DNA of 64,000 nt from Fidelibacterota bacterium (GTDB lineage: Bacteria > Fidelibacterota > SORT01), in the NCBI GenBank assembly GCA_022573815.1, contig JACZTG010000001.1, positions 64,882 to 128,881 of the forward strand, read 5' to 3'. The translations under genes and the position numbers were made by a program. Positions 17,709-55,346 of this stretch are shown piece after piece; position 1 is the stretch's first letter, and every line of letters begins with the position of its first letter. Under the pieces are notes generated by a model. That model was not told where the DNA came from. It worked only from the letters and a program-made list of their open reading frames with translations, and searched no databases.

Positions 17709-18659
17709 ATGATATCTTTTGAAAATATAGAATTTCTATGGTTACTCTTATTCGTACCCGCTCTCCTGTATTGGTATCTGCGAAAGAATGAAGCTCTTCG
17801 CAGTAAATTAAGGTTTTCCGATACCCGGATTTTCAGCAAGATATCCGGCAGGAAAGTATCGCTACGGGTTCATCTCCCGTTTGCTCTGCGTTTGATTGCG
17901 CTGACTCTTATAATATTCGGATTCGCGCGTCCCCGTTCGGGGGTTACCAATCAGGAAATCACTACAGAAGGAATTGATATAATGCTCGTTCTGGATATTT
18001 CCAGCAGTATGGAAGCGAGAGATTTTAAACCGAACAGATTAGAGGCGGCAAAAGCCGTAGCGGATTTGTTTATAAAAAACAGGAAAAATGACAGGATAGG
18101 ACTTATAGTTTTCGCCGCTGAATCGTTTATTCAAGCGCCTTTGACGTTGGACTACGATGTACTACGATCGTTTTTAAGAAAGGTCCGAATTGTTCCCAAA
18201 AAATATGACGGCACAGCTATTGGTCTTGCTATTTCAAGCGGTGTTAACAGGCTAAGAAGAAGCGATGCCAAAAGTAAAATTATGATTCTCCTTTCTGACG
18301 GCAGCAACAACTCGGGTGAGGTGCAGCCGCTTACCGCGGCAGAGCTGGCTGCGGCATTTGACGTTAAAGTGTACACTATCGGCGCTGGAACGAAATCGCG
18401 CAGATTGCTTCAAGGTGATTTAGATGAAGAAATGTTGATAAAAATTGCCGAGCGCACCAATGGAAAATATTTTCACGCAGCAGACGAACAACGGCTTCAG
18501 GATATATACAACGAAATCAACGAGTTGGAAAAAACTGAAATAAAAGTCAAGGAATATACGCGATTTGAAGAATTGTATTCATTTCTACTACTTCCGGGAT
18601 TGATTATCCTTCTGATAGAAGTTTTTGCGGGAATGACTTATTCTCGGAGATTGCCCTGA
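17709..18659 (+). CDS. batA: VWA-domain protein BatA (aerotolerance operon)
   Basis: N-terminal 2 TM. VWA MIDAS DxSxS as LDISSSM. C-terminal TM. Confidence 0.8.
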   Translation: MISFENIEFLWLLLFVPALLYWYLRKNEALRSKLRFSDTRIFSKISGRKVSLRVHLPFALRLIALTLIIFGFARPRSGVTNQEITTEGIDIMLVLDISSSMEARDFKPNRLEAAKAVADLFIKNRKNDRIGLIVFAAESFIQAPLTLDYDVLRSFLRKVRIVPKKYDGTAIGLAISSGVNRLRRSDAKSKIMILLSDGSNNSGEVQPLTAAELAAAFDVKVYTIGAGTKSRRLLQGDLDEEMLIKIAERTNGKYFHAADEQRLQDIYNEINELEKTEIKVKEYTRFEELYSFLLLPGLIILLIEVFAGMTYSRRLP

Positions 18660-19690
18660 TGTTCCGTTTTGTAAATTACAGTTTTATCTATTTTCTATGG
18701 TTCATTCCACTGCTGGTATTAATGCTTTATTTTTCATTGAAGAAAAAAAATCGGCTTTTATCTTCATTAGGTGAAATGGAAGTAGTCAAAAGACTTCATC
18801 GCAGCACAAGCCGGAAGAGACAAGCCGCGAAAGTATTGACAGTTATTTTCGCGATTTCGCTGCTTATTTTTGCTCTTATGGGACCGCAAATGGGGACGGT
18901 ACTTTCCGAGGTCAAGCGGGAGGGGATAGATATAATAATACTTTTGGACGTCTCAAAGAGTATGCAGGCGGAGGATATAGTTCCAAACAGAATAGAGAGA
19001 GCCAAGTTTGAGATTTCCCGGTTTATAGATAAGCTGGAAGGCGACAGGGTGGGGTTGGTGGCATTCGCAGGAACAGCCTATCTTCAGGTTCCGCTTACTT
19101 TAGATTATTCCGCCGCCAAAATGATGTTGGATATACTTGATACTGATATTATCGGAACTCAGGGAACTGCAACTGCCGAAGCGATCGAAATCGCATTGGA
19201 ATCGTTTACCGAAGAGAGAGCTACACAAAAAGTAATTATTCTGCTCACCGACGGAGAAGACCATGAAAAGCATACGACTGAAGCGGCGGAAAAAGCTGTC
19301 GAGACGGGAGCAATAATTTACACCGTTGGGGTTGCATCAGTCTCCGGCGCGCCAATACCTTTATACAATAACCGCGGAGAAAGAACAGGATTTAAGAGAG
19401 ACAGTGAAGATAAGATTGTGACAAGCAAATTGAATGAAGTTGTTCTCGATGAGATTTCCGGTATTACGGGTGGAAGATACTTCAGAATCGGCGAACGGAG
19501 TAATGGACTTGAAATGGTACATAAAGAGATCAGATTGATGGAGAAGAGCGAATTCAGCACGAGAGAGTTCGATGAATACAAAGAATGGTACCAATATATA
19601 GTCGCTTTCACCCTTTTATTGCTTATGACTGAACCTTTTATCCCCGAAAAGCGTAAACTTCTAAAAGAGTGGCATGGCAGATATAAATAA
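18659..19690 (+). CDS. batB: VWA-domain protein BatB
   Basis: Second VWA protein (LDVSKSM MIDAS) with TM anchors. Its start overlaps the batA stop. Confidence 0.8.
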   Translation: MFRFVNYSFIYFLWFIPLLVLMLYFSLKKKNRLLSSLGEMEVVKRLHRSTSRKRQAAKVLTVIFAISLLIFALMGPQMGTVLSEVKREGIDIIILLDVSKSMQAEDIVPNRIERAKFEISRFIDKLEGDRVGLVAFAGTAYLQVPLTLDYSAAKMMLDILDTDIIGTQGTATAEAIEIALESFTEERATQKVIILLTDGEDHEKHTTEAAEKAVETGAIIYTVGVASVSGAPIPLYNNRGERTGFKRDSEDKIVTSKLNEVVLDEISGITGGRYFRIGERSNGLEMVHKEIRLMEKSEFSTREFDEYKEWYQYIVAFTLLLLMTEPFIPEKRKLLKEWHGRYK

Positions 19691-20393
19691 AGTAATGTTT
19701 CTTATTATGATTTTTGTGGTAACAGCGCCGCTGTACGCCCAGGAGAGCACGACAGATCCAGCTTTACAAGCGTATAGAGACGGAGAATATGATAAGGCTA
19801 TAAAGCTCTATTCAGATATGTTAGCGGATAAATCAGATGACACTAATCTAAAATTCAATTTAGGAAGCTCATTTTATAAAAAAGGAACTTTTAATGCCGC
19901 TAAATCGGGTTTTGAGGATGCTCTGGACTCTGAAGACAATTACACGAAATCGAGAGCGTATTATAATTTAGGAAATACATACTTTAAATTAAATAAACCG
20001 GAAGAAAGTCTTCAGGCTTTTAAAAATGCTATGATGCTTAATCCGGAAGATGAAGACGCAAAGTTTAATTATGAATTCGTGAAGAATTTACTCCAAGAGG
20101 ATGATCAAAAACAGGAAGGCGACGACGAGCAAGAAGAGGAAAACGAAGATTCTGAGGAGCAAGATGAGAGTGAAAAGAAAGAAAACGAAGAAAAGGAAGA
20201 TGATAACGAGCAAGAGCATAATGAAAATGAACAGAAAAATAAACAGCAGCAGCAACAACAGGAAGAAAAAGAACGAACACAGGAAGAATACAAGGACATT
20301 CTCGATGCCTTAGAGCAGCAGGAGATGGAAGCATTAAAGGATTACATATCCGCAAAGACGGTGAGAAGAAGACAGCCGGAAAAAGACTGGTAA
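19674..20393 (+). CDS. batC: TPR-repeat protein BatC with a long acidic/Gln-rich low-complexity tail
   Basis: Signal peptide, TPR repeats, then about 65 aa of E/D/Q-rich sequence. Confidence 0.7.
   Translation: MADINKVMFLIMIFVVTAPLYAQESTTDPALQAYRDGEYDKAIKLYSDMLADKSDDTNLKFNLGSSFYKKGTFNAAKSGFEDALDSEDNYTKSRAYYNLGNTYFKLNKPEESLQAFKNAMMLNPEDEDAKFNYEFVKNLLQEDDQKQEGDDEQEEENEDSEEQDESEKKENEEKEDDNEQEHNENEQKNKQQQQQQEEKERTQEEYKDILDALEQQEMEALKDYISAKTVRRRQPEKDW
20097..20295 (+). repeat. GAA/GAG/CAG-rich low-complexity coding repeat (acidic/poly-Gln tract inside batC)
   Basis: The translated tract is EDDQKQEGDDEQEEENEDSEEQDESEKKENEEKEDDNEQEHNENEQKNKQQQQQQEEKE. The opposite strand gives a spurious S/C-rich ORF. 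Confidence 0.8.
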
Positions 20394-22204
20394 TGTTAAG
20401 ACAACTGATATATACCATTCTTGTTGTCTTGATTTTCTTTGACGTCTCAATCGCTCAGAATGAGATAGAGATGGAGGCATCGGTTTCCCGCAGCGATCTA
20501 AGTTTAAAAGAGCGGTTTACATATAAGCTGGAAATTCGCGGCGAACGTCAGCTGAACTTACCGGATGTTGAAGTATCAGAATTCAATGATTTTTATATTG
20601 TAGGCGGACCGTCCCAATCAACCAATTTTTCGTATTTCAATGGCGAAATAAGTTCTTCGGCTACCTATACCTGGGTGCTGGAGCCAAAAAAGAATGGAAG
20701 TTTTAAAATAGAAGCGGCGACTCTAAGATATAGAGGTATGACGTACAAATCGGAATCCATCAGTATCAACGTATCATCTTCCCGTGGAAGAAAAAATCCG
20801 ATAACCGCTCAGGGCTTAAATCAAAAAGGCGGAAAGAAAAAGTCTACCTTTCTGGTGGCTTCAATTGATAAAGATAAGGTTTATAAAGGAGAGCAGGTAA
20901 CGGTTACATACAGAATTTATACCAGAGTACGGCTGGTTAATTTCAATACTCCGTCACCTCCGGAGGCAATCGGATTCTGGGTCGAAGAGATTCCTCAGCC
21001 GGCAAAACCATTGGTGGAAGAAGAAATAATCGATGGGGTTCGGTACAGTACCGCAGTCGTGGGACGATTCGCTTTATTTCCTACCCGTTCCGGTAAGCTG
21101 GAGTTAGCGGAGCTTCCCCTTGATTTCAAAGAGAGAGTTAAAAGGCGTCGCTCTAACAGTATATTTGATGATTTTTTCGATGATCCCTTTGGAAGATTTG
21201 TGAACAAACGCGTGCTGTCAAACAGCCTCAAAATAAACGTTCTTCCTCTTCCCGAGAAAGGAAAACCCGAAGATTTTTCCGGTGCAGTGGGTGATTTTAA
21301 AATAACAGCGGAAATTGTGGAATCTGAGGCGGAAGTAAATGACGCAATTACATTGAGGGTAAAGATTTCCGGAGCCGGAAACATTAAATCAACAAGGGCT
21401 CCCGTAATTGAGTTTCCCGATGGAGTGGAAATTTTCGAGCCTGAAATCAACCAGCAAAGTTCCGTTAAGCGGGGTCGCATATATGGGGAAAAGAATTACG
21501 AATACGTATTGATATTGCGTAAAGCGGGTCAAATGGAGCTTAATCGAATTGAATTGACTTATTTTAATCCGAAGAAGAATAAATATGAGGTGTCGAGGTC
21601 AAAGCCGATTATAATTGATGTTGAGGAAGGAGACCGTTCTTTTGTGGCAGTCAATCCGGGACTCACGAGAGAAGAGGTAGTTATAATAAGCAGCGATATA
21701 CGATTTATAAAAAGGGAAACTTCCGAATTCAGTAAAAGAAACGAAAAAATACTCGACACCGGCTGGCTGCTGTTCTGGGGAGTGTCTCCGATGTTCGCCC
21801 TCGCAGGAGCTTTTCTATTCAGAAGGCATCATGATCAGATGAGCACGAATGTCGCTTATCAAAGAAGGCGGCGCGTGTCCGGCGAATCAAGGAAAAGACT
21901 GAAAAAGGCTAAGGAAGCGTTGGAAGCGGGTAATCTGAAATCGTTTCATAATGAGGTCAGCAAGGTTCTGTTAGGTGCCGCAGCGGACAAATTAAATCTC
22001 CCGTTCGCAAACATTAATGTTGCTGAAATAGAGGATGTTCTCAAAAAAAGAGGGGCTGATGAAACATCTATTGCTGAGTTTAATACTCTAATAGCGTTAT
22101 GCCGGAAAGCAGTTTACTCTCCTGAGAATATTGAATTATACAATATGGATACCACATACGACAGGGCGGTAAAGTCCCTGGATAACTTATTAAAGGTGCT
22201 TTAA
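20393..22204 (+). CDS. batD: BatD-family oxygen-tolerance protein
   Basis: 603 aa. N-terminal signal, a long extracytoplasmic region, and a C-terminal TM helix WLLFWGVSPMFALAGAFLF. Position in the Bat operon. Confidence 0.7.
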   Translation: MLRQLIYTILVVLIFFDVSIAQNEIEMEASVSRSDLSLKERFTYKLEIRGERQLNLPDVEVSEFNDFYIVGGPSQSTNFSYFNGEISSSATYTWVLEPKKNGSFKIEAATLRYRGMTYKSESISINVSSSRGRKNPITAQGLNQKGGKKKSTFLVASIDKDKVYKGEQVTVTYRIYTRVRLVNFNTPSPPEAIGFWVEEIPQPAKPLVEEEIIDGVRYSTAVVGRFALFPTRSGKLELAELPLDFKERVKRRRSNSIFDDFFDDPFGRFVNKRVLSNSLKINVLPLPEKGKPEDFSGAVGDFKITAEIVESEAEVNDAITLRVKISGAGNIKSTRAPVIEFPDGVEIFEPEINQQSSVKRGRIYGEKNYEYVLILRKAGQMELNRIELTYFNPKKNKYEVSRSKPIIIDVEEGDRSFVAVNPGLTREEVVIISSDIRFIKRETSEFSKRNEKILDTGWLLFWGVSPMFALAGAFLFRRHHDQMSTNVAYQRRRRVSGESRKRLKKAKEALEAGNLKSFHNEVSKVLLGAAADKLNLPFANINVAEIEDVLKKRGADETSIAEFNTLIALCRKAVYSPENIELYNMDTTYDRAVKSLDNLLKVL

Positions 22205-23564: not shown

Positions 23565-24557
23565 ATGGATCTCCGAAATAAATCCACTCTTATCAAGTTG
23601 CTCGTCACACTGCTATTGATATATTTTCTGTATAATTTTATTAATGTATCATTCGAAGATATAAGTAATTCGATTCTCCATGCGAAGAAACAATTTTTGA
23701 TTGCAGCAGCTCTTCTAATGCCGGTGACGATATTGCTGCAGATTATAAAATGGTATCAGCTTTTGCGTGATCAGGAAGCTCGAGTGCCGTTCAAAAGCGC
23801 AGCAGTTTCCCATCTATCGGGAATGGCGCTCGGCATAGTGACTCCGGCGAGAATCGGAGAGCTTGGAAGAGCATGGTTTCTGCGGGAACTCCCACAGATA
23901 AAAGTTTTCAGCCTGACTATTCTGGATAAATTTTACTCAACATTAGCGTATTTCAGTATAGGAGTTTTCAGCTTATATATGTTTTTTGTACCGAATAATG
24001 ATTTTAGCATATTCCAGACGGCAGCAGTCGCATTGGCAATGACAGCGATTTATACCTTTATTTTATTGGCGTTAATCAAACCGCAGATTGTGGGATATGC
24101 ATTTAACAAGTATCCTGATTTTTTACCGAGAAAAGAGCTGTTCAGCAAGATCGCCGCAGTTATGGCTCAGGTTGTCAGGAAAAAAGTATTGCTTGTTTAC
24201 GCATTAGGTAGCGGAGTTTGGTCGTTAGTAGTGTTTCAACTCTGGTTACTTGTGAATGCGTTCAGCGAGGTCAGTTTTTTCATCGGGATAAATAACGCTT
24301 CTGCGGCACATTTTACGAAAACGCTTTTTCCTGTCACATTTGGAGAATTGGGGGTGAGGGAAGCAACTGTAATATATTTTTTTAAAAATCAGGGAGTCAC
24401 AGAATCAGCGGCGGTAAGCGCGGCGTTGTTACTGCTCCTGTTGAATGTTTTGATACCTTCATTAGTGGGAGTCACATTTATAACACGGTTAAGATGGGGC
24501 AATTCGTCAAATATTGGTAAAGGAAAAACGAACGATTCAGTGGAAGTAATTAAGTGA
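23565..24557 (+). CDS. Flippase-like / lysylphosphatidylglycerol-synthase transmembrane-region family protein (UPF0104)
   Basis: 330 aa with about 8 TM helices. GMALGIVTPARIGELGRAWFL is characteristic of the LPG_synthase_TM family. Confidence 0.55.
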   Translation: MDLRNKSTLIKLLVTLLLIYFLYNFINVSFEDISNSILHAKKQFLIAAALLMPVTILLQIIKWYQLLRDQEARVPFKSAAVSHLSGMALGIVTPARIGELGRAWFLRELPQIKVFSLTILDKFYSTLAYFSIGVFSLYMFFVPNNDFSIFQTAAVALAMTAIYTFILLALIKPQIVGYAFNKYPDFLPRKELFSKIAAVMAQVVRKKVLLVYALGSGVWSLVVFQLWLLVNAFSEVSFFIGINNASAAHFTKTLFPVTFGELGVREATVIYFFKNQGVTESAAVSAALLLLLLNVLIPSLVGVTFITRLRWGNSSNIGKGKTNDSVEVIK

Positions 24558-26158
24558 TTAGTCTGTTGCTTCCTATTTTAGCTTACGCTGAAATACACTA
24601 TAAATGGAAGTATTTTCCAAGCAGATTATTTATGAAACGGCCGGAAATTATCGCGGATATTCCATTCAGAATCAACCCGGATACTTCTTTACCCTTACTC
24701 TGCATTATAAAAGACGCCAATAGATTTCCTACTCGGTTGAATGATATTGAAATAGACCTTGAAGATGAAAAGGGATATAAACAATCAATCAAATTCAATT
24801 ATGATGGACAGCCGATTACAAAACGGTATTGGAGCGAGGTAATTAATATAGAACTTTCGGATGAGCTGCAGGGCAGAGTGAAAGTGAATGTAAGATTTTC
24901 TTTGTCGGATGAAAATGATAAAAAATATTTCGTTCTGAATGATAATCTGAAAGGTTTATCTCCGTTAAAACTGGAATTTGTTCGCGGTAAAAATGCGTTG
25001 CCGAGAATAGACGGTTGGCATTACGGAGATTTTCATATTCATACTGATTTCACTGATGATAAAGTCGAATTCGGGGCGCCGATAGACGCTTCTGCCAGAT
25101 TGTCCAAATCACTCGGGTTAGATTTTTTTGTTGTTGCCGATCATTCATATAATCTTGATAATTCTATGGAGAATCCGTATGAAAACGACTCCTCTATTCC
25201 GCGTTGGAAAGTTTCACGCGATTTGATTGATAATTTTGACACAGAAGAAGGGGCTCTGCCGTTGCCGGCTGAAGAGGTATCTTGCGGAAATGCTCGTGGA
25301 GAAAATGTTCATCTCTTAGTGCTGAATTCACCGCATTTTATTCCGGGAAGCGGAGATAGTGAAGATGATTATCCTAATATGAAGCCAACGTTAACTATCA
25401 CTGAGACACTTGATTTGATGGGAGAAGATGCTGTGGCAATCGCTGCGCATCCATTCGATAAACCTTCTATCGGTCAAAAATTGATTTTTAATCGCGGAAG
25501 TTGGTCAAAGAAGGATTTGCTCGATGACAGAATAGCGGGGTTACAAATTTTAAATGGTTTGCCCGACGATGTATTTTATAAAGGGTTAAAAGTTTGGAAA
25601 GAACTGCTGCTTGAAGGGCGCAGGAAAACAATATTTGCGGGAAACGATGCCCATGGAAATTTCAATACCTTCAGGCAGATAAAGATTCCATTTCTAACCA
25701 TGCACCAACATAAAAATCAATTATTCGGTCAAGTGCGAACTGCTCTAAATCATAACGGGATTGTTCAAGCGAAAAGCCTTCTTGAAGCGATAGCTGCCGG
25801 TCGAGCACAGATAACAACAGGTCCACTTTCGGAGCTGATTTTGATTGATAAAAACGATAAAACCTATGGTGTGGGAGATGAGGCTGCTGCCGGAGAATAT
25901 AATCTCAAACTGAAGGTTGTGTCCTCAGCTGAATTCGGCAGATTGAAAAATATTCTTATTATTATCGGAGATTATGCTGAAAAATCTGAAACGGTCAGTA
26001 AAGAGCTGACTGATTTCGAAACAGATTATGAATATGAGAATAGATTTAACATCGGAAATTTAAAAGCGGGTTATATTCGGATGGAAGCTTACACGATCAA
26101 AAATGGGAAAGAATGTTTTTCTCTGACCAATCCGATTTGGATTGGAAGCGGTGGTTAA
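24554..26158 (+). CDS. PHP-domain (polymerase/histidinol-phosphatase-like) metal-dependent phosphoesterase-like protein with a large N-terminal extension
   Basis: HYGDFHIHTDFTDD followed by VVADHSY is a PHP-type His/Asp metal-binding pattern. About 150 aa N-terminal of unknown function. GTG start. Confidence 0.5.
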   Translation: MISLLLPILAYAEIHYKWKYFPSRLFMKRPEIIADIPFRINPDTSLPLLCIIKDANRFPTRLNDIEIDLEDEKGYKQSIKFNYDGQPITKRYWSEVINIELSDELQGRVKVNVRFSLSDENDKKYFVLNDNLKGLSPLKLEFVRGKNALPRIDGWHYGDFHIHTDFTDDKVEFGAPIDASARLSKSLGLDFFVVADHSYNLDNSMENPYENDSSIPRWKVSRDLIDNFDTEEGALPLPAEEVSCGNARGENVHLLVLNSPHFIPGSGDSEDDYPNMKPTLTITETLDLMGEDAVAIAAHPFDKPSIGQKLIFNRGSWSKKDLLDDRIAGLQILNGLPDDVFYKGLKVWKELLLEGRRKTIFAGNDAHGNFNTFRQIKIPFLTMHQHKNQLFGQVRTALNHNGIVQAKSLLEAIAAGRAQITTGPLSELILIDKNDKTYGVGDEAAAGEYNLKLKVVSSAEFGRLKNILIIIGDYAEKSETVSKELTDFETDYEYENRFNIGNLKAGYIRMEAYTIKNGKECFSLTNPIWIGSGG

Positions 26159-30078: not shown

Positions 30079-30639
30079 ATGGCCAGTACATCAGATTTTA
30101 GAAACGGATATACATTCTCCTATAATAACGATATTTACAAAATAGTGGAATTTATGCACGTTAAACCGGGTAAGGGGAATGCCTTCGTAAGGACAAAACT
30201 CAAGAGTATCAAATCGGGCAAGGTGATTGACAAGACATGGCGAGCAGGTGAAAAGATCGATGAAGTAAGGCTTGATGCAAAAAAAATGCAATATCTTTAT
30301 TCAGATGACTCGGCATATTATTTTATGGATATGGCTACATTTGAACAAATACCGATACCGGCAATATTAATGGAAGAAGTGAAAAAGTTTTTAAAAGAAA
30401 GTATGGAAATAAAAATCCTTTTTAACGGTGATGAGCCGATAGATATAGAAATACCACCTTTTGTTGTAGCAGAAATAGTTGAAACCGACCCGGGTTTGAA
30501 GGGAGACACCGCAACAGGCGGCAGTAAACCCGCTACACTCGAAACCGGATACGTTTTGAATGTTCCTTTATTTATTCAGCAGGGTGAAAAGGTGAAAGTG
30601 GATACTCGCTCAGGTGAGTATGTCGAAAGAGTAAAATAG
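30079..30639 (+). CDS. efp: Translation elongation factor P
   Basis: MASTSDFRNG...KPGKG (beta-lysylation loop KPGKGNA). 186 aa. Confidence 0.95.
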   Translation: MASTSDFRNGYTFSYNNDIYKIVEFMHVKPGKGNAFVRTKLKSIKSGKVIDKTWRAGEKIDEVRLDAKKMQYLYSDDSAYYFMDMATFEQIPIPAILMEEVKKFLKESMEIKILFNGDEPIDIEIPPFVVAEIVETDPGLKGDTATGGSKPATLETGYVLNVPLFIQQGEKVKVDTRSGEYVERVK

Positions 30640-30667
30640 TTAGTCTAAATTATTTCTCGGAGAGATA

Positions 30668-31129
30668 ATGAATGAAAAAAAAATAAGGCAGCTCATAAAA
30701 ATTGTCGAAGAATCCGACATAAATGAACTTGAAGTGAGCCGCTGGGGGAGACGGGTCAGGATAACGAAGAATGTCGTGCATAATAATGGCACAGCAGATA
30801 TTGAAACAATTCATGTGGGACAGAAACCGGATACCAAAGAGGCGGATTCTAAAGTTGCTTCAGAAGAAGCGGAAGTTTCGCAGGAGACCGGAATTGAAAT
30901 TAAATCTCCGATGGTAGGCACATTTTATGCTGCTCCGGCGCCCGATGCAAGTCCATACGTTTCCGTAGGTGACAAAATTAAGGTTGGAGATGTGTTGTGC
31001 ATTGTCGAGGCTATGAAGCTGATGAACGAAATTGAAGCGGAAGAAGCTGGAGTTATAAGCAAGATTTTGGTCGAGAACGCCAATCCTGTACAATATAATC
31101 AACCTCTTTTCTTATTAGAGGCCGAGTAA
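30668..31129 (+). CDS. accB: Acetyl-CoA carboxylase biotin carboxyl carrier protein
   Basis: Biotinyl-lysine motif [12 protein letters not shown] at the C-terminus. Confidence 0.9.
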
Positions 31130-31139
31130 AAGCTCCCGA

Positions 31140-32573
31140 ATGTTCAAAAAAATATTGATAGCCAATAGAGGAGAAATCGCTCTCAGGATTATCCGTGCGT
31201 GCCACGAGCTCAAAATTGCGACGGTTGCAGTATATTCTGAGGCTGATGAAGATTCTCTTCACGTAAAATTTGCGGACGAGGCGGTATGTATCGGGCCTTC
31301 TCCCAGCGCTGAAAGTTACCTTCTAATTCCACGAATTTTGGCATCGGCAGAGATTACCAACTCAGACGCTATTCATCCCGGTTATGGGTTTCTTGCGGAA
31401 AACGCGAATTTTGCTGGCTGCGTTGTAGATTCCGGAATAACATTTATCGGGCCGTCTTCTGAGGTAATTCAAGCAATGGGTGATAAAGCTAAAGCGAAGG
31501 CAACTATGAAAAGCGCCGGGGTTCCGGTCATACCCGGCAGCGAAGGCATCGTGGACAGCGTGGAAGATGCGCGAAAAATTTCTAATGATATTGGTTATCC
31601 TGTCATTTTCAAAGCTACGGCAGGTGGCGGCGGAAAGGGGATGAGGATTGTTAACAGTGAGAAGGAAGTGGAAAAACAGTTTCTCATGGCCAGGACAGAG
31701 GCACAGGCTAATTTTGATAACGGTGATCTATACGTTGAAAAGTATTTTACAAACTCGAGACACATTGAGATTCAAATTCTCGCCGACGACCATGGGAATG
31801 TGATTCATCTCGGTGAAAGAGAATGTTCCGTGCAACGCAGACACCAGAAATTGATAGAAGAATCTCCCTCTCCGGCCGTGAATGATGCACTGCGAAAGAA
31901 AATGGGCGATGCGGCGGTAAACGGCGCCAGAGAAGCAAACTACAGAAATGCAGGCACCATTGAATATTTGCTCGACAGCGATAAAAATTTCTATTTCATG
32001 GAAATGAACACACGAATACAGGTTGAACATCCGGTAACTGAGATGGTATATGGAGTTGACCTTATAAAAGAACAGATACGTATTGCTGCCGGAGAGCCTA
32101 TCAGCACCGAGGTATTAACGGCTAAGCCGCAATGGCACGCTATTGAATGCCGTATAAATGCAGAAGACCCGGGAAATAAATTTATGCCTTCCCCAACTCT
32201 CATAACCGCTTTTCATGTTCCGGGAGGAGTAGGCATACGAGTTGACACTCACGCCTATGCAGGTTATGAAATTCCAATGTATTATGATTCGCTTCTTGCC
32301 AAGATGATCTCCTGGGGAAGAACACGGGAAGAAGCTATCGGAAGAATGAAGCGCGGAATCGAAGAATGTGTGATAGAAGGTCCGAAGACTACTTTACCCT
32401 TTCACCTTCAGGTTCTGAAGGATGAACGGTTTGCCAAAGGTGAATATGATACAAGTTTTATTGATAACTTTCATTTTGATCCCACCTTGATGAAAAGAGG
32501 TGATTATCCCGGATTAATGGAAAATATAGATAAAGAAAAAATTGAGGAGGTAGTGATTGAACCTACCGAATGA
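31140..32573 (+). CDS. accC: Acetyl-CoA carboxylase biotin carboxylase subunit
   Basis: ATP-grasp [21 protein letters not shown]. Full-length, 477 aa. Confidence 0.95.
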
Positions 32574-32934
32574 CATAAAGTACACCAAAGAACATGAATG
32601 GACTAAAATTGAGGGAAATGTCGCCACTATCGGAGTTACTGATTTTGCGCAATCTGAGCTGGGAGATATTGCCTGGATTGAAATGCCGGAATTAGGTGCA
32701 GAAACTAAAAAAGGCGAACCTTTCGGGACAATAGAAGCAGTGAAAACAGTAGAAGATCTATTTGCTCCTCTTTCCGGAAAGATTGTTGAAATAAACGAAG
32801 ATCTTTTAGATTCACCGGAATGGGTTAACGATGATCCTTACGGCAAGGGCTGGATAGCAAAAATTGAGTTCAGTGACGAGGCGGAACTCTCAAGTCTTCT
32901 TTCCGCAGATGACTATTCAGGACTAATTGAATGA
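32557..32934 (+). CDS. gcvH: Glycine cleavage system H protein (lipoyl carrier)
   Basis: Lipoyl-Lys context [10 protein letters not shown]. 125 aa. Confidence 0.9.
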
Positions 32935-34289
32935 CCATCAAGGAAGCGTTTCATCTTATCCCCAACACCGAAAAAGATAGGGAAGAGATGCTCTCCGCTA
33001 TTGGCGTTGAGAATTTTGAGGAACTGTTGTCAAATGTTCCGCCTGAGCTTCTTAACACAAGTTTTGATTCATTGGATGACGGACTATCCGAATATGAAGT
33101 ATCGAAGATTCTAAGCGAGCTTGCCAGCGGCAATCTTCATTCAGGTGAAGCGGTTTCTTTTCTTGGGGGAGGGTCTTATGACCATTTCGTTCCCAGTTTA
33201 ATAGGAGAAATTATAAGTCGCTCAGAATTTCTTACAGCTTATACGCCTTATCAGCCTGAGGTTGCACAGGGCACTCTTCAAGCAATATTCGAGTATCAAT
33301 CTATGATTTGCGCATTAACGGGAATGGATGTATCAAATGCCTCAATGTATGATGGGGCGTCCGCACTCGCTGAAGCGGCGCTGCTTGCGACAGGCTATAC
33401 GAAGAGGAACAAACTTCTGATTGCCTCAACAGTTAATCCATCTCACAGAGATGTGGTAAAAACGTATATCCAGGGCGATAATTTGGAGCTCGTCACTGTC
33501 CCTAATAAGGACGGGATCGTAAACATTGAAGAACTTAAGTCGTTAATTGACGCAGACACCGCCGCAGTTTTAGTCCAAACGCCGAATTTCTTCGGATGTA
33601 TTGAAGACGCAGAAAAGATGGCGGATATCGCTCATGAGAACGATAGTCTTTTTATCGTAAGCGCTGATCCAATTTCACTCGGCATATTAAAAAAACCGGG
33701 TGAGTATGGCGCCGATATCGTCGTGGGAGAAGGTCAGGCATTGGGAAGCCCCACACAGTTCGGTGGGCCGTATCTTGGAATATTTGCTGCGAAAATGGAA
33801 CTTGTGCGGAGGATGCCGGGCAGAATCACAGGACAGACCTGGGATGTGGACGGAAAAAGAGGATTTGTACTTACTCTGCAGACGAGAGAACAGCATATCC
33901 GAAGGGAGCGGGCAACTTCCAATATCTGTACCAATCAAGGTATTGTAATGCTTACAGCAGCTATTTACATGGCTCTAATGGGGAAAAACGGAATCAGCGC
34001 CGTAGCGGAACTGAGCGCTAACAGAAGCCATTATCTTGCGGATGAAATTGATAAACTACCGGGCTATGAGCTGATGTTCAGTGCGCCGTTCTTCAAGGAA
34101 TTTGTTGTGAAAACTCCCGTTGCGCCCGAGAAAATAATTGAATCCCTTTTGTCAGAAAAATTCTTTGCGGGGATTGACTTATCACCATTTGACTACGAGA
34201 TTGAAAACGGAATGCTCATTTGCGTTACGGAAAAAAGGTCAAAGGAGGAGATGGACAGGTTAGTCCAACTCCTTCGCGAGGCGGCTTAA
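32931..34289 (+). CDS. gcvPA: Glycine dehydrogenase (aminomethyl-transferring) subunit 1
   Basis: The N-terminal half of P-protein architecture, 452 aa. Its start overlaps the gcvH stop by 4 nt. Confidence 0.9.
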   Translation: MTIKEAFHLIPNTEKDREEMLSAIGVENFEELLSNVPPELLNTSFDSLDDGLSEYEVSKILSELASGNLHSGEAVSFLGGGSYDHFVPSLIGEIISRSEFLTAYTPYQPEVAQGTLQAIFEYQSMICALTGMDVSNASMYDGASALAEAALLATGYTKRNKLLIASTVNPSHRDVVKTYIQGDNLELVTVPNKDGIVNIEELKSLIDADTAAVLVQTPNFFGCIEDAEKMADIAHENDSLFIVSADPISLGILKKPGEYGADIVVGEGQALGSPTQFGGPYLGIFAAKMELVRRMPGRITGQTWDVDGKRGFVLTLQTREQHIRRERATSNICTNQGIVMLTAAIYMALMGKNGISAVAELSANRSHYLADEIDKLPGYELMFSAPFFKEFVVKTPVAPEKIIESLLSEKFFAGIDLSPFDYEIENGMLICVTEKRSKEEMDRLVQLLREAA

Positions 34290-34292: not shown

Positions 34293-35039
34293 TTGTCCGC
34301 TTGGGCAAATCTTCTTAAGAAAGTTGAAACAAGGGGCAGCGCTTATCTTGTCCTGGTGGACCCCGATTCGATAGAACAGGATTCCGTTCCTGACATTGCA
34401 AGGCAAATATCGGATGGAGACGCGGATGGAATTCTCGTCGGAGGAAGTCTGATTAACAGTGGAGATTTCGAATCAACTCTTACCGCACTGAAAAAGTCCA
34501 CCGATTTGCCGCTGATAATATTCCCCGGCTCGTCAGAGCAGGTGTCAGAGACAGCCGATATGCTGCTTTATCTTTCCCTGCTTAGCGGGCGAAACGCCGA
34601 TAAAATTATCGGCGAACAGGTAAAATCGGCAATGCGGATAAAAAAATCGAATATAGAATCTGTTTCCACGGCGTATCTTCTAATTGAATCAGGGAGTATT
34701 ACAACAGCGCAATTTATGAGCGGAACGCTGCCGCTGCCAAGGAAGAAATATGATATAGCGGTAGCTCATGCCGTTGCAGCGGAGCTTCTCGGTATGAAGG
34801 CGATATATCTTGAAGCGGGGAGTGGCGCGGATTTACCGGTACCGTTGAAAACCGTTTCCGCTGTGACCGCAGAAGTAGATATTCCTGTGTTTGTAGGCGG
34901 AGGTATTCGTTCTCCCGAAACAGCGGAGCTCAGAGCGCGAGCGGGCGCTTCTTTCATTGTAACAGGCAGTGTTCATGAATCGGAGATGGATTCTAAATCA
35001 GTAAAAGAATTCGCAAAAGCAATACATTGGAAAGAGTAA
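34293..35039 (+). CDS. pcrB: Geranylgeranylglyceryl-/heptaprenylglyceryl-phosphate synthase family protein (PcrB/GGGPS TIM-barrel prenyltransferase)
   Basis: DGILVGGS near the N-terminus, C-terminal phosphate-binding FVGGGIRS, and GSV. Length 248 aa, typical of PcrB/GGGPS. Confidence 0.7.
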   Translation: MSAWANLLKKVETRGSAYLVLVDPDSIEQDSVPDIARQISDGDADGILVGGSLINSGDFESTLTALKKSTDLPLIIFPGSSEQVSETADMLLYLSLLSGRNADKIIGEQVKSAMRIKKSNIESVSTAYLLIESGSITTAQFMSGTLPLPRKKYDIAVAHAVAAELLGMKAIYLEAGSGADLPVPLKTVSAVTAEVDIPVFVGGGIRSPETAELRARAGASFIVTGSVHESEMDSKSVKEFAKAIHWKE

Positions 35040-35950
35040 CAAACAGTGAAAAGACTGAATTAAGCAACGGGTTACGCGATTTTTTTATCCACCTCCGATT
35101 AGAAAGAAACCTTTCGGAAAATACTATATCCGCATATGGCACAGCGCTAAATCGTTATCTGCTTACACTCCGGGATAAAGGAATCTCCAAAGCCCGGGAT
35201 ATTGATTCGGGAGTCATTGCTTCGATGTTCACCGAGCTGTCCGCATTAGGTCTCTCTGCCAGAAGCGTGGCGCAAAATTTATCAGCCATAAAAGCATATC
35301 ACAGATACCTTGAGGACGAAAAAATAGCGGTGGAAGATCCCACAATTAATTTTCAGACGCCGAAGATAGGTAAAAAGTTACCTCAGGTTCTTGAGTATAC
35401 TGAAATAAAGCGTATATTAGACGCAATTGATACATCCACTCTAATCGGGATTAGAGACAGGGCAATGCACGAAACATTATACGGCGCCGGATTGAGAATA
35501 AGTGAGTTGATTAACTTAAGTAAAGCGAATATTTTCAGAAAAGAGGAATTTATCAGGGTTATCGGTAAAAGATCCAAAGAAAGGTTTATACCTTTGGGGG
35601 AAGAAGCGTTCAGGTGGATTGGATTGTGGGAAACCGATGCGCGACCGCAATTATTCAAAATAGAAATTTCTGAGGATTATCTCTTTCTGAACAATAGAGG
35701 CAAGAAAATGTCTCGTGACGGATTCTTTAAGATATTTAAAAAATATGTTGCGAAAGCAGGCATAGACAAAAATATAAGTCCGCACACGATTCGTCATTCC
35801 TTTGCTACTCATTTGCTTGAAGGCGGAGCCGACCTTCGTTCGGTGCAGGAGATGTTAGGGCATGCCAGCATTGCTACAACTCAAATCTACACTCATCTTG
35901 ATCGCGAATATTTGAAAGAAGTACATAAATCTTTCCATCCCAGAGGATAG
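35027..35950 (+). CDS. Tyrosine site-specific recombinase, XerC/XerD family
   Basis: C-terminal catalytic region HTIRHSFATHLLEGGADLRSVQEMLGHASIATTQIYTHL with the Tyr nucleophile. Core-binding N-domain present. Confidence 0.8.
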   Translation: MERVTNSEKTELSNGLRDFFIHLRLERNLSENTISAYGTALNRYLLTLRDKGISKARDIDSGVIASMFTELSALGLSARSVAQNLSAIKAYHRYLEDEKIAVEDPTINFQTPKIGKKLPQVLEYTEIKRILDAIDTSTLIGIRDRAMHETLYGAGLRISELINLSKANIFRKEEFIRVIGKRSKERFIPLGEEAFRWIGLWETDARPQLFKIEISEDYLFLNNRGKKMSRDGFFKIFKKYVAKAGIDKNISPHTIRHSFATHLLEGGADLRSVQEMLGHASIATTQIYTHLDREYLKEVHKSFHPRG

Positions 35951-35952: not shown

Positions 35953-36603
35953 ATGAATATTTCAGCACTGTTACTCAGCATTCCTCCGATTCTATTCGCG
36001 CTGAGTTTTCATGAATACGCACACGGATGGATGGCGAACAGATTGGGAGATCCGACGGCAAAAAATGAGGGTAGATTAACTCTTAACCCTCTTGCTCACC
36101 TCGATCCTTTAGGAACTTTAATGATAGTTATAGTGCATTTCGGTTGGGCAAAACCGGTTCCGGTAAATCCCTATAATTTGGCTGACCCGAAAAAAGATAT
36201 GCTCAAAATTGCGTTGGCAGGTCCTGTCTCTAATGTACTGATGGCGGCGGCAACGGGACTTCTTATTCGCCTGATGCAAGGAATGGGTATGTATGTGGAC
36301 GGAAGTTTTCTCGGGTTTTTTCAATATATGCTTTACTTTTTAGTGATGATAAATCTTGTTCTGGCGATTTTCAATATGATACCTATTCCGCCTCTCGACG
36401 GATCAAAAATACTATTCGGACTACTCCCAACCGAATATGAAGAAAGTTTTATAAGATATGAGAGCAAGGGACCTATGATACTTTTAGGTCTTGTAATAGT
36501 GAATAATTTCTTTGGAATACCAATATTCTCCACTTTTATTTCGCCTTTCGTAACATTCTTCAGCACTGTTTTCGTTGGCAGGAATCTCATAAGCCTTTTC
36601 TGA
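35953..36603 (+). CDS. Site-2 protease (M50) family membrane zinc metalloprotease
   Basis: HExxH as HEYAHG in the first TM region and a second ligand region LDGS. Polytopic. Confidence 0.7.
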   Translation: MNISALLLSIPPILFALSFHEYAHGWMANRLGDPTAKNEGRLTLNPLAHLDPLGTLMIVIVHFGWAKPVPVNPYNLADPKKDMLKIALAGPVSNVLMAAATGLLIRLMQGMGMYVDGSFLGFFQYMLYFLVMINLVLAIFNMIPIPPLDGSKILFGLLPTEYEESFIRYESKGPMILLGLVIVNNFFGIPIFSTFISPFVTFFSTVFVGRNLISLF

Positions 36604-36809
36604 TGTTTAATCGATTACCGAAGCCGCGGTATACATTCGATCCTTTTGGGGGAAAAGAATCTGATGATGACAAACCAAAAAAAATGATTTTTAAAAGAAA
36701 AAGATTAAGTATGAGAGAATCATCGGGTTCAGTTTGGAAAATCGTATTTATGGTTCTGGCTGTTTTCTGGATTATTCATTATTTTGGTGGTTTCGGCGGA
36801 GGAAAATGA
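36603..36809 (+). CDS. Small hypothetical protein with C-terminal TM helix
   Basis: 68-aa ORF. Its stop overlaps the start of the next gene. Possibly not expressed. Confidence 0.3.
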   Translation: MFNRLPKPRYTFDPFGGKESDDDKPKKMIFKRKRLSMRESSGSVWKIVFMVLAVFWIIHYFGGFGGGK

Positions 36810-37780
36810 AATTACTTTCAGATAAATTTGAACTTTCAAAGGCTGATATTCAGCGTAGGGATTCGGATGAAAGGGATCCGCGCGCGTTGGATTTGTTTAA
36901 ACCCTACGAGGGTAAAAAGGTTGATTTCGGTCTTTTAGGAGTCCCGTTTGACGGAGCCGTAAAAGGCAGACCCGGCGCTCGCCACGCTCCTGACAGTATC
37001 AGGGAGGCTTTCAGGTTTTATTCTACATATAATTATGAGCATGATGTTGATGTATCCGGAATGAATGCGGCGGACTTCGGGAATGTTAAACTGACCCGGG
37101 AGAACGTTAAAGAGGCACACGATCGGATCACATCTGCTGTCGGACAACTGCTCAGCGTCGCCGATGTTCCTATGATAATGGGAGGGGATCATTCAATTAC
37201 TTTTGCAACCGTAAAAGCGCTTTCCGAGGTGACCGAAGGAAATATCGGCATAATAACATTCGATTCGCATAATGATGTGAGGGAATATGAAGACGATGAT
37301 ATTTCAAGCGGCACTCCGTTCAGGCGGATTTTGGAGGAAATTGAGGGCGAACCTGTCAAGGGGAAGAATATCGTCCAAATAGGACTTCATGGATTTCTTA
37401 ACTCTTCGTACTATCGTGATTATGCTATTTCAAAAGAGATGATGATTTTCACTGCCGACGTTGTTCGGACGATGGGGATGGAAAACGTTATTAAAGGAGC
37501 GTTGATGCAGGCAGGGGACGGCACAGAAGCGATTTACCTTAGCGTAGATATTGATTCGGTTGACCAGGCGGAAGCTCCGGGTGTTAGCGCTCCCAGCCCG
37601 GGAGGTCTCAGCTCTTCCGAGCTCCTTAAAGGGATTTTTCACATCGCAAGCGAATCAAAAGTAAAATGTATGGATGTTGTGGAAATAGCGCCGCCACTTG
37701 ATTCGAGCGGAAACAGCGCACGGCTCGGCGCAAACGCTTTGTTGTATTTTCTTGGAGGAAAGGCTAAAAGCATTGGGTAA
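36806..37780 (+). CDS. Arginase-family hydrolase (agmatinase/formimidoylglutamase-like)
   Basis: Mn-binding motifs GGDHS, DSHND and SVDIDSVD. The start is trimmed to ATG 36806 (MKLLSDKF). Confidence 0.7.
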   Translation: MKLLSDKFELSKADIQRRDSDERDPRALDLFKPYEGKKVDFGLLGVPFDGAVKGRPGARHAPDSIREAFRFYSTYNYEHDVDVSGMNAADFGNVKLTRENVKEAHDRITSAVGQLLSVADVPMIMGGDHSITFATVKALSEVTEGNIGIITFDSHNDVREYEDDDISSGTPFRRILEEIEGEPVKGKNIVQIGLHGFLNSSYYRDYAISKEMMIFTADVVRTMGMENVIKGALMQAGDGTEAIYLSVDIDSVDQAEAPGVSAPSPGGLSSSELLKGIFHIASESKVKCMDVVEIAPPLDSSGNSARLGANALLYFLGGKAKSIG

Positions 37781-49234: not shown

Positions 49235-51256
49235 TTGAAAGCATTTTCTAAAAACTTCATTCTTTTACTTCTGCCTTTGCTGGTTTTTTTTGTTGTCTAC
49301 ATCGGAGATACGGTATTTAAGATTAATACCGGTGTAGTAGAAGTATTAGCGTGGCTAAGAGAATTATTACTTCTTGGAGCTATCGCAGGACTTGTGCCTC
49401 TTCTCTCTTCGCTGAAGATTCTTAATCCCGGCAAGACAACAGCAAAATTCAGAGTATTACTTTTCGTTGTTATAGCATTTTTTGTAGTTTCCGTCGTTCA
49501 CAAATTTGTTTTAGTCCCAATATTCGGTACTCTCAATGGATATGTATTGATATCCATAATCTACTCTTTTTTAAGCATTATAGGGTTGATCCAAATTCGG
49601 GACCTCATCTACTTTAAAAGAAAAAAAAATACCGGCAAAGTATTTGCCGCGCTAATCATATCAATTTCTATGGTTTCTATATATGGCGGATTAAGCTCAA
49701 AAGATTTTCAGCAAATATTGGGCATAGTGATGATTCCAATCGGATTCGCAATATTCAATTCGTTTAGGGTTTCATGGATCGCTTATTTGTCTAAGAGTCA
49801 AAAATACCTGGTTTTACTCTTCTGTATGATTTTAGTTGCCGGATCATATTTTTTAAGGGATTTGGTTATAGCATCAGCATTATTTGAATATAGCTACAGT
49901 GTAGAAATATTTGTACATCTTGCCACAACTTCAATCTCTATATATACGTTTTTTGGAATGGTTGGCTTACTGCTTCACCTTCCGACAGCAACGTTATTCG
50001 ACCGGAAAATAAGAGATATTGAGTCTCTTCAAAGTCTCAGCCGGGCGGTGAGTTCGGTTTTAGATGTAAGTAAACTCACGGAGATGATTTCAGAATTCAC
50101 TGCTGAATATTCCAACTCACAATACTCGTGGTTGGTATTAAGAGAGCCTGATGATGACGAATTTTACCTTATGTCAAGTCATGGACTCACAGAAGAGCAA
50201 CAAAATAATATGAGTTTTAAAATTGACGAGGGAACAAGCGGCCTGATTTTTAAAAGCGGCGAACCTTTGATTTCTCAAGATGTGGCAAGAGAAGAAAGCA
50301 CCAAGCACTTAAAATTCTGGAATGCAGGAATAAAATCACTTATAGGATATCCCCTTATATCCGAAGCGGGAGTTATAGGTATTCTCTACGCCGGAATGAA
50401 TGAAGAATACGGATATGATAATGACGACATAGACTTAATAGGCGCATTCTCAAATCATATAGTAATCGCATTGGAAAATGCTAAATTGGTTGAAGGGTCC
50501 ATCGAAAAAGAAAGACTCGAACATGAGCTTAGACTTGCCCACGAAGTACAGCTGAATCTTCTTCCGAAGGGTGTTCCGGATTTACCCGATGATTTCGACA
50601 TCGCTGCTGCCAGTATGCCGGCTAATGAAGTTGGCGGCGATTATTTTGATTTCATTGAGATTGATGAAAATCGTATCGGACTTGTTATCGGCGATGTTTC
50701 AGGCAAGGGAACATCAGCTGCATTCTATATGGCCGAAATTAAAGGGATGATTCAAGCCTACAGCAGAATTTATGATTCACCACGTAAAATATTATGCGAT
50801 GTAAATCGCGCACTATACGGTAATCTGGACAGCCGCTCCTTTATATCGCTTACCTACGCCATTGTGGACAGTAAAAAACATAAAATGAAGTACTCAAGAG
50901 CCGGACATATGCCTATACTGCGCTATCTCGAAAAAGAGAACGAATGGTCCGAATTGGAGCCAAAAGGGATAGGATTAGGTATGGATAAAGGCGATATCTT
51001 CGATAAAGTTATCGAAGAAGCGGAAATAAAGCTTAAAAGTGACGAGCTTTATTTCTTTTACACTGACGGCGCTTCGGACGCGATGAATCATAATCAGGAG
51101 GAATTTGGAGAAGAAAAATTGAGAATATCGTTAACAAAACATTATCACTTGAGCTGCGAAGAGATAAAAGCCAACCTGATTAATGATATTTGGAAACATA
51201 TCGGCAAACAAGATGTGCATGACGATATAACGATGATTATTATGAAAATTAAGTAA
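49235..51256 (+). CDS. Membrane-anchored GAF-domain PP2C/SpoIIE-family Ser/Thr phosphatase (RsbU-like)
   Basis: About 7 N-terminal TM helices, a GAF domain, and a C-terminal PPM domain with HEVQLNLLP and EVGGDYFDF. Typical of RsbU/SpoIIE phosphatases. Confidence 0.8.
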   Translation: MKAFSKNFILLLLPLLVFFVVYIGDTVFKINTGVVEVLAWLRELLLLGAIAGLVPLLSSLKILNPGKTTAKFRVLLFVVIAFFVVSVVHKFVLVPIFGTLNGYVLISIIYSFLSIIGLIQIRDLIYFKRKKNTGKVFAALIISISMVSIYGGLSSKDFQQILGIVMIPIGFAIFNSFRVSWIAYLSKSQKYLVLLFCMILVAGSYFLRDLVIASALFEYSYSVEIFVHLATTSISIYTFFGMVGLLLHLPTATLFDRKIRDIESLQSLSRAVSSVLDVSKLTEMISEFTAEYSNSQYSWLVLREPDDDEFYLMSSHGLTEEQQNNMSFKIDEGTSGLIFKSGEPLISQDVAREESTKHLKFWNAGIKSLIGYPLISEAGVIGILYAGMNEEYGYDNDDIDLIGAFSNHIVIALENAKLVEGSIEKERLEHELRLAHEVQLNLLPKGVPDLPDDFDIAAASMPANEVGGDYFDFIEIDENRIGLVIGDVSGKGTSAAFYMAEIKGMIQAYSRIYDSPRKILCDVNRALYGNLDSRSFISLTYAIVDSKKHKMKYSRAGHMPILRYLEKENEWSELEPKGIGLGMDKGDIFDKVIEEAEIKLKSDELYFFYTDGASDAMNHNQEEFGEEKLRISLTKHYHLSCEEIKANLINDIWKHIGKQDVHDDITMIIMKIK

Positions 51257-51295
51257 CAATAAGCGTTTCAGAACGTAAATAGCAGGGAGAGATAA

Positions 51296-51652
51296 ATGCA
51301 AACAGACATAATATTGAAGAGAGAAGACATTAATGGAGTCTCGGTAATTCACGTCGGAGGATACCTTGATGCTCATACAGCAACAAAATTCGAATCGTTA
51401 ATACTCGAGTTGACCAATGCAGAAAGATATAAACTCATCCTGAACTTCAAGGAACTTGATTACATTTCAAGCGCCGGATTGGGAGTTATTATGGGAAATA
51501 TCGAAGAGATACGGAATCATGATGGAGATATCAAGCTGTCTGATATGGGCGAGAAAATTTACAGAGTATTTGATTTAGTGGGATTCCCGAGTTTGTATGA
51601 CATATTCGATACTCAGAAAGAGGCTGAAACTGCTTTCGAAAGCAAAAGCTAA
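51296..51652 (+). CDS. STAS-domain anti-sigma-factor antagonist (RsbV/SpoIIAA-like)
   Basis: 118 aa. The conserved phosphorylatable Ser context is LDYISSAGLGVI. Confidence 0.8.
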   Translation: MQTDIILKREDINGVSVIHVGGYLDAHTATKFESLILELTNAERYKLILNFKELDYISSAGLGVIMGNIEEIRNHDGDIKLSDMGEKIYRVFDLVGFPSLYDIFDTQKEAETAFESKS

Positions 51653-51666
51653 ACGGGGAGAGAATA

Positions 51667-52104: not shown

Positions 52105-52165
52105 AAGATGAATTCCAATTCCTTTGAATAAGTAATGATACAGTCGTATTTTACTTCTGCCATTT

Positions 52166-55282: not shown

Positions 55283-55346
55283 AACACTTCAGCTAATAAT
55301 TTTACACAGGTGCATGGCAGTTGCCGGTCCTCAAAAAGCGAATTCA

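Follow-up and report, generated by a model that had tools for sequence, protein, structure and literature searches.

A group II geranylgeranylglyceryl phosphate synthase gene within a conserved housekeeping block of a Marinimicrobia bacterium

The 64-kb stretch of contig JACZTG010000001.1 analyzed here (hereafter the window) comes from an uncultured marine Marinimicrobia (SAR406) bacterium and carries, on the forward strand at 34293-35039, an intact gene for a geranylgeranylglyceryl phosphate synthase (GGGPS) of group II, bacterial or IIb type. GGGPS forms the first ether bond in lipids of archaeal type. The gene begins with TTG, encodes 248 aa, and was characterized from Pfam, NCBIfam and Protein Data Bank (PDB) matches, from its predicted fold, and from the ratio of non-synonymous to synonymous substitution rates (dN/dS). 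It lies between gcvPA and xerD in a string of eleven co-directional genes that runs from efp (30079) to miaA (40545) with overlaps or gaps of no more than 37 nt.

The open reading frame (ORF) and its motifs are present as the initial annotation gave them (DGILVGGS at residues 45-52, FVGGGIRS at 200-207, and GSV within IVTGSV at 222-227, TGSV occupying 224-227). The TTG start is considered correct because it is kept, together with the N-terminal sequence, in the orthologs at loci L009 and L010 (both 73% identical), because 19 more distant homologs have their initiator Met aligned with this N-terminus, and because residues 3-14 form a confident helix in an AlphaFold2 (AF2) model built on 20 homologs. 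A GAGG sequence is found 11 nt upstream of the TTG. After the gcvPA stop codon TAA, whose last base is 34289, three bases (caa) precede the TTG at 34293; the position 4 nt after gcvPA given in the initial annotation corresponds to a 3-nt spacer. At the other end, the gene overlaps the start of xerD (35027) by 13 nt.

Family, fold and active site

The protein matches the Pfam PcrB profile (PF01884) at 145.3 bits (gathering score 23.9; E = 2.5e-42) over residues 17-242, equivalent to profile positions 7-224 of 226. It passes two NCBIfam models, the GGGPS subfamily NF003198 (267.7 bits, cut-off 247, E = 7e-80) and the geranylgeranylglyceryl phosphate (GGGP) equivalog TIGR01769 (199.2 bits, cut-off 161.55). 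Scores fall below the cut-offs for the Bacillus-type heptaprenylglyceryl phosphate (HepGP) synthase equivalog NF003197 (22.7 vs. 260 bits) and for the group I archaeal equivalogs TIGR04146 and TIGR04147 (43 and 36 bits vs. 320 and 300). The best sequence matches in the PDB are group II structures, namely Flavobacterium johnsoniae FjGGGPS (4jej; E = 7e-54) and Methanothermobacter MtGGGPS (4mm1; E = 2e-47), with the Thermoplasma group II enzymes 6jo3 and 6nke at E about 1e-41. Bacillus subtilis PcrB and Archaeoglobus fulgidus GGGPS (AfGGGPS) match only at E about 4e-8 to 2e-7.

The AF2 model (predicted local distance difference test score, pLDDT, 87.9; predicted template modeling score, pTM, 0.89) places an N-terminal helix (residues 3-14) before eight strands, as in a modified (beta-alpha)8 barrel that bears an additional helix, alpha-0, at its N-terminus. 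Foldseek comparison with group II structures gave template modeling (TM) scores of 0.88-0.92 (0.89-0.92 for 4jej, 4mm1 and 5ndy) and root-mean-square deviations (rmsd) of 1.5-1.9 Å, against TM 0.70-0.76 and 20-23% identity for PcrB and AfGGGPS; the top PDB fold matches are all GGGPS, PcrB or MoeO5. In both sequence and structure the protein is closer to group II than to group I of the Peterhoff classification, in which IIb denotes the bacterial enzymes. The proposal that the gene encodes a PcrB/GGGPS barrel enzyme of archaeal type is borne out by profiles, PDB matches and fold. A Bacillus-type PcrB, the outcome named beforehand as speaking against that proposal, is excluded by the profile, PDB and fold scores taken together (NF003197 at 22.7 vs. 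260 bits; PDB E about 1e-8; TM at most 0.76).

How does the protein compare with known systems? The group IIb enzymes from the FCB (Fibrobacteres-Chlorobi-Bacteroidetes) superphylum, represented by FjGGGPS and by those of Chitinophaga pinensis and Candidatus Cloacimonetes, belong to the same Pfam and NCBIfam families. The protein shares 42-44% of its residues with FjGGGPS and 45-54% with other FCB homologs. It superposes on 4jej at TM 0.89 and rmsd 1.9 Å, and its catalytic and phosphate-binding residues are identical. The gene neighborhood, in contrast, is specific to Marinimicrobia, and whereas the enzymes assayed to date are from Bacteroidetes and Cloacimonetes, this one is known from sequence. 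The archaeal group IIa enzyme MtGGGPS is approximately 43% identical over 213 aligned columns (TM 0.90, rmsd 1.6 Å); group IIa also includes Thermoplasma TaGGGPS and TvGGGPS. Unlike the archaeal systems, the host is a bacterium with accBC, psd, pssA and lnt in the window, and no glycerol-1-phosphate dehydrogenase (G1PDH), digeranylgeranylglyceryl phosphate synthase (DGGGPS), CarS or geranylgeranyl reductase is encoded nearby. Bacillales PcrB (group Ib; 1viz, 3vzx) shares the superfamily, the barrel fold, the logic of the motif that binds sn-glycerol-1-phosphate (G1P), and a bacterial host. However, identity to 1viz, 3vzx and 4naf is only 21-23% (TM 0.73-0.76), the residue that limits chain length is on a different helix, and the predicted prenyl donor is C20 rather than C35.

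Active-site residues were mapped through ungapped HMMER alignments to 4mm1 (offset +2) and 4jej (offset +6), with roles taken from a review (PMC9385802) and from Kropp 2021 (PMC7888582), and conservation was judged in an alignment of 20 homologs. D23 (codons for D23-P24-D25 at 34359-34367) corresponds to the Mg2+/diphosphate ligand D25 of MtGGGPS, and all three residues are invariant. S52, also invariant, aligns with MtGGGPS S54, a possible Mg2+/diphosphate ligand. The first member of the Tyr/Tyr/Glu set implicated in catalysis and stereospecificity is the invariant Y128 (34674-34676; FjGGGPS Y134). The second Tyr and the Glu are Y172 and E174, aligned with Y178 and E180 of FjGGGPS, and lie in the stretch Y172-L-E174-A-G176-S177-G178 (34806-34826), which also provides the phosphate-binding loop beta-alpha-6 and whose columns are invariant or nearly so. 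Loop beta-alpha-7 is formed by G202-G203-G204 (34896-34904) within FVGGGIRS, and loop beta-alpha-8 by T224-G225-S226 (34962-34970) within the GSV motif. At position 226 the protein has Ser; Thr is usual in group II, and relatives have Thr or Asn, with Thr in the close ones. Loops beta-alpha 6, 7 and 8 together provide the complete standard motif for the G1P phosphate, and every catalytic and phosphate-binding residue named in the review is present and, the chain-length limiter excepted, invariant or nearly so (PMC9385802). The residues Y134, Y178 and E180 are labeled there as MtGGGPS numbering but match the FjGGGPS chain of 4jej; their 4mm1 counterparts in the HMMER alignments are Y130, Y172 and E174.

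Two further positions relate to product length and quaternary structure. V84 (34542-34544) occupies the proposed chain-length limiter position of group II on helix alpha-3' (MtGGGPS V86, FjGGGPS I90), which is V, I or L among the homologs. Judged at the sequence level, this small hydrophobic residue, a Val as in MtGGGPS, fits a C20 donor, although the group II limiter has been described as poorly defined (PMC9385802). F141 (34713-34715) is at the "aromatic anchor" of the hexamer ring interface, equivalent to MtGGGPS W141. This position is Arg in the dimeric Flavobacteriales enzymes, FjGGGPS among them, and aromatic in hexameric ones (PMC7888582). The protein therefore carries a hexamer-type anchor, and the position is Phe or Tyr in all 20 homologs. 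The hallmark of the hexamer pairs such an anchor with a cationic residue, and the anchor half of the pair is what was observed here.

The occurrence of GGGPS in FCB phyla, including Marinimicrobia, is already published and routinely annotated by NCBI, so the present find is correct but not new. Group II enzymes of Bacteroidetes were characterized by Peterhoff et al. (2014), as cited in later papers (PMC7888582; PMC7852524; PMC9385802), and homologs from Bacteroidetes and Cloacimonetes convert geranylgeranyl diphosphate (GGPP) and G1P to GGGP in vitro (PMC7852524; PMC7888582). More than 7,000 homologs are found in the protein database, many of them named GGGP/HepGP synthase by NCBI, including one from a Marinimicrobia metagenome-assembled genome (MAG). 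The initial annotation gave bacterial homologs as known from Bacillales and from some Bacteroidota and FCB lineages, in agreement with this literature. Our literature search returned no paper combining Marinisomatota with GGGPS, and no Marinimicrobia culture or lipid data.

Neighborhood, inheritance and selection

Fourteen metagenome contigs encode an identical protein; in the six of these metagenome assemblies that were compared, the gene shows either no nucleotide difference or 1-2 of them. Among species-representative genomes, the nearest relatives are those of an uncultured MAG (L008; 87% identity), Candidatus Marinimicrobia bacterium MT.SAG.3 (73%) and a Candidatus Neomarinimicrobiota MAG (73%). 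The next, at 39-52% identity, are from Ignavibacteria, Gemmatimonadetes, Latescibacterota, Fibrobacterota, WOR-3 and many Bacteroidota. In a neighbor-joining (NJ) tree rooted on MtGGGPS, the protein forms a clade with those of MT.SAG.3 and the Neomarinimicrobiota genome at 100% bootstrap, and the deeper nodes (19-45%) are without resolution. The monophyly of the bacterial GGGPS clade is taken from the literature (PMC6431249; PMC7852524). A BatA-BatD operon and type IX secretion markers (PorV and an FG-GAP protein with Por_Secre_tail), at 17709-22204 and 54164-58436, fit a host of the FCB superphylum.

The gene is under strong purifying selection, with dN/dS of 0.10 against L008, 0.09 against L009 and 0.06 between L009 and L010, the three comparisons in which dS is unsaturated. 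Its GC content matches that of its neighbors (0.44 over 32-40 kb). A pseudogene or relic was rejected on these dN/dS values (0.06-0.10) and the intact residues.

Upstream of GGGPS, all on the forward strand, lie efp, accB and accC (30079-32573; Pfam), followed by gcvH (32557-32934), which overlaps the end of accC by 17 nt, and gcvPA (32931-34289), which encodes glycine dehydrogenase subunit 1. Both glycine-cleavage genes are full length: GcvH matches Pfam GCV_H and the models NF002270 (170.2 bits, cut-off 117) and TIGR00527 (154.9 bits, cut-off 115.85), and GcvPA scores 640.6 bits against NF001696 (cut-off 364). Downstream, xerD (35027-35950, forward strand) encodes the tyrosine recombinase of chromosome dimer resolution and passes the XerD equivalog TIGR02225 (341.1 bits, cut-off 329.6). 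The order efp-accB-accC-gcvH-gcvPA-GGGPS-xerD is the same in L008, L009 and L010 and in two NCBI Marinimicrobia assemblies (L088 and L089) with GGGPS only 53% identical. Across the Marinimicrobia loci the gcvPA-GGGPS spacer is 3-22 nt, and xerD follows GGGPS in all those examined. In all five related loci gcvH and gcvPA are apart from gcvT and gcvPB. The local lack of both had been remarked on for the window, and indeed no GCV_T match and no second GDC-P match was obtained with Pfam on every gene of the window or in a further 9 kb upstream, read from a metagenome contig.

The efp-to-xerD order is an old, phylum-wide synteny in a tight housekeeping string and not a recent appendage. The initial annotation described GGGPS as appended to a truncated glycine-cleavage cluster; the layout is accurate in that only gcvH and gcvPA are present, but neither gene is shortened and the conserved order speaks against an appending event. 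An island or integrase cargo was rejected, given that the recombinase is XerD, the synteny spans the phylum and the composition matches the neighboring genes. The variable point is the GGGPS/xerD junction, which is the 13-nt overlap in the window, a 360-nt non-coding gap in L009 (10748-11108) and, in L010 (10744-13392), a 2.6-kb insertion with a 408-aa DUF5694 ORF.

The gene order is not kept in other FCB phyla. In 80 FCB genome loci the top neighbor clusters include CorC/CNNM, GldD, 4'-phosphopantetheinyl transferase, single-stranded DNA-binding protein (SSB) and peptidase M14, as well as a phosphodiesterase, YchF, PurD, RsgA and a sugar transferase. In approximately 35 Bacteroidales loci (e.g., L049, 839-1471; L029, 8707-9288) GGGPS is directly 3' of a 4'-phosphopantetheinyl transferase of the ACPS superfamily, with a median gap of 35 nt. 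This recurrent neighborhood, which also has GldD, CorC/CNNM and SSB, is not discussed in the GGGPS literature consulted.

Promoter-like sites were found before efp and before the next unit at 40599. A terminator scan gave 15 candidates against 11.7 ± 3.6 expected, which is not significant, and the terminator and promoter scans revealed no convincing internal terminator or promoter excess. No glycine riboswitch or other RNA was found near gcvH with Rfam; the sole Rfam/ARAGORN match in the 64 kb is a tRNA-Arg(CCT) at 63680-63754. Because the string is tightly packed and co-directional from efp through to mutL-miaA, GGGPS is probably expressed constitutively with its neighbors, with no dedicated lipid operon.

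Several other features of the window and its relatives may be recorded. A 68-aa ORF (36603-36809) between an M50 peptidase gene and an arginase-fold gene is 51-54% identical in L009 and L010 and matches no family. The arginase-fold gene itself (36806-37780) is at the cut-off for formimidoylglutamase (hutG; 229.2 vs. 229.15), and in the distant locus L088 (1-1747) the same block is preceded by genes for urocanase and an amidohydrolase that may be imidazolonepropionase. At 49235-53893 is a partner-switching module, in which a STAS-domain protein and an anti-sigma-type HATPase_c_2 kinase lie between two GAF-SpoIIE phosphatases.

Proposed reaction and fate of the product

With a probability of roughly 85%, we read the gene as encoding a functional FCB-type group II GGGPS, vertically inherited in Marinimicrobia, that would join GGPP and G1P to yield a C20 monoether. 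By analogy with the characterized homologs, from which we infer both substrates, G1P would be bound by the loops G176-S177-G178, G202-G204 and T224-G225-S226, and GGPP would be held via Mg2+ at D23. Mg2+-assisted ionization of GGPP would be followed by attack of the glycerol phosphate C3 hydroxyl, polarized by E174 with the aid of Y128 and Y172, and the predicted product is GGGP. GGGP could remain a monoether or, given a UbiA-type DGGGPS gene at another site in the genome, go on to form a diether. The conserved housekeeping block and strong purifying selection suggest that the product is probably used by the cell.

Several points weigh against this reading. The published GGGPS assays include no Marinimicrobia enzyme. 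The predicted C20 specificity comes from V84 only, owing to the loose definition of the group II limiter. Likewise, co-transcription is deduced from the spacing (gaps of at most 37 nt or overlaps) and the lack of convincing terminators, and the terminator scan was itself uninformative. The NJ tree holds one archaeal sequence and alone cannot show monophyly of the bacterial clade. Finally, no gene for G1PDH, GGPP synthase or DGGGPS is present in the window, in the 9 kb upstream, or within 10 kb of GGGPS in related loci.

The search for partner genes was extended beyond these three enzymes. Neither the window, with Pfam on every gene, nor the 9 kb upstream contains a UbiA-family, iron-dependent alcohol dehydrogenase (Fe-ADH)/G1PDH-type, polyprenyl synthase, CarS or geranylgeranyl reductase gene, and the statement that no G1PDH or prenyl-diphosphate synthase gene is adjacent thus holds over a wider region than originally claimed. 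A motif and hydrophobicity scan of 91 fetched loci found no UbiA-type ORF up to 10 kb from GGGPS, and a polyprenyl synthase motif scan of the same loci gave two matches, both false. Lipid-pathway genes are also missing from the top neighbor clusters of the 80 FCB loci. The lipid genes that do occur in the window are bacterial, i.e., accB, accC, lnt, psd and a CDP-alcohol-type pssA, the last two as an overlapping pair (13375-14743). PssA passes the bacterial model TIGR00473 (129.2 bits, cut-off 107) and scores 141.6 bits against the archaetidylserine synthase model NF038087, below its cut-off of 240. PssA proteins of this CDP-alcohol type are reported to accept CDP-archaeol. At 23565-26158, the genes for a flippase-like LPG_synthase_TM protein (TIGR00374) and for a 534-aa CehA/McbA-family metallohydrolase lacking a Pfam match share 4 nt; a role of this pair in membrane lipids is possible.

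In this bacterium a GGGPS is present but in the absence of a nearby partner, what would become of its product? The pathway may stop at the monoether, with GGGP losing its phosphate, perhaps gaining an acyl or acetyl group, and ending as a minor lipid of non-bilayer type. We regard this as a serious if tentative candidate. A precedent exists in Bacillales: there, dephosphorylation of HepGP and its acetylation by YvoF are described, yet the purpose of the lipid is "still an enigma" (PMC9179154). Moreover, GGGPS is solo, with no lipid-pathway partner nearby, at all FCB loci examined, and, according to the Villanueva supplement, no single Marinimicrobia genome combines GGGPS with DGGGPS (PMC7852524). 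However, incomplete MAGs and single-amplified genomes could explain this apparent lack of co-occurrence. The two studies also disagree on this point, as the Coleman supplement lists GGGPS and a DGGGPS-like protein (OIO64010.1 and OIO65800.1) from one MAG, Candidatus Marinimicrobia CG1_02_48_14 (PMC6431249). In addition, no YvoF-like acetyltransferase was seen in the window.

A full pathway is also conceivable, in which a UbiA-type DGGGPS encoded elsewhere adds the second geranylgeranyl chain, bacterial CdsA, PssA and Psd supply the head groups, and the membrane is mixed, with some diether phospholipid of archaeal type. This is the model of Villanueva 2021 for Cloacimonetes, whose GGGPS is active and, when co-expressed with DGGGPS in E. 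coli, gives phosphatidylglycerol (PG)-archaeol (PMC7852524). Orthologs of both enzymes were reported in all 12 of the FCB phyla surveyed by Coleman 2019, Candidatus Marinimicrobia included, with both genes in the MAG mentioned above (PMC6431249). The psd gene in the window and the relationship of its pssA to archaetidylserine synthases (141.6 bits, NF038087) are compatible with such a route, and strong purifying selection shows that the product matters. Against this, no UbiA-type gene is found in approximately 73 kb of this genome or at any related locus. The Cloacimonetes arrangement is absent from the window, its upstream 9 kb and the 91 loci, in keeping with the restriction of GGGPS/DGGGPS co-localization to Cloacimonetes (PMC7852524); a solo GGGPS is the condition of all other FCB phyla. 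Among FCB phyla, G1PDH was reported only in Fibrobacteres and Cloacimonetes (PMC6431249), although Villanueva argues that this enzyme is dispensable (PMC7852524). The note in the Villanueva supplement on co-occurrence in Marinimicrobia counts here too. A complete diether pathway is accordingly possible, with considerable doubt.

Could the adjacency to gcvH and gcvPA itself be functional, the barrel enzyme having been recruited to a glycine or one-carbon role instead of lipid synthesis? The 3-22 nt adjacency of gcvPA and GGGPS is kept across Marinimicrobia down to 53% identity, but the proposal is very improbable. All catalytic and substrate-binding residues of GGGPS are intact, and orthologs in other FCB phyla are instead near CorC, GldD, 4'-phosphopantetheinyl transferase and SSB. 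Also in the block are efp, accBC and xerD, genes with no pathway in common, a mixture that fits the housekeeping string of a compact genome. We know of no biochemical link between GGGPS and glycine cleavage.

It is scarcely credible that the gene was gained horizontally in recent times, or is a relic in decay, brought in by the tyrosine recombinase next to it: a Phage_integrase-family gene does overlap the 3' end of GGGPS and the junction varies (2.6-kb insertion in L010, 360-nt gap in L009), but the recombinase passes the XerD equivalog (341.1 vs. 329.6 bits) and is syntenic in all relatives, GC content is like that of the neighbors, dN/dS is 0.06-0.10 and the gene tree follows the phylum.

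Possible bacterial ether lipids and the dark ocean

The preferred reading, a functional and vertically inherited group II GGGPS, makes this gene one more ordinary FCB example, and the question of where GGGP goes is general to FCB bacteria rather than specific to the locus. The additions made here are the old, conserved housekeeping block with its purifying selection, the retention of the aromatic anchor, and the finding that no lipid-pathway partner lies near. Bacterial GGGPS is relevant to the "lipid divide" that separates archaea from bacteria, as well as to the reading of archaeal lipid biomarkers in the ocean.

Marinimicrobia rank with the most abundant bacteria in the dark ocean. A more far-reaching proposal is that they constitutively express a hexamer-type GGGPS and have isoprenoid glycerol ether lipids in their membranes, either diethers made via a distant UbiA homolog or unusual C20 monoethers; we consider this unlikely. 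If it were true, part of the "archaeal" ether-lipid signal of deep and hadal waters would be bacterial, and the trait could bear on the behavior of membranes at high pressure.

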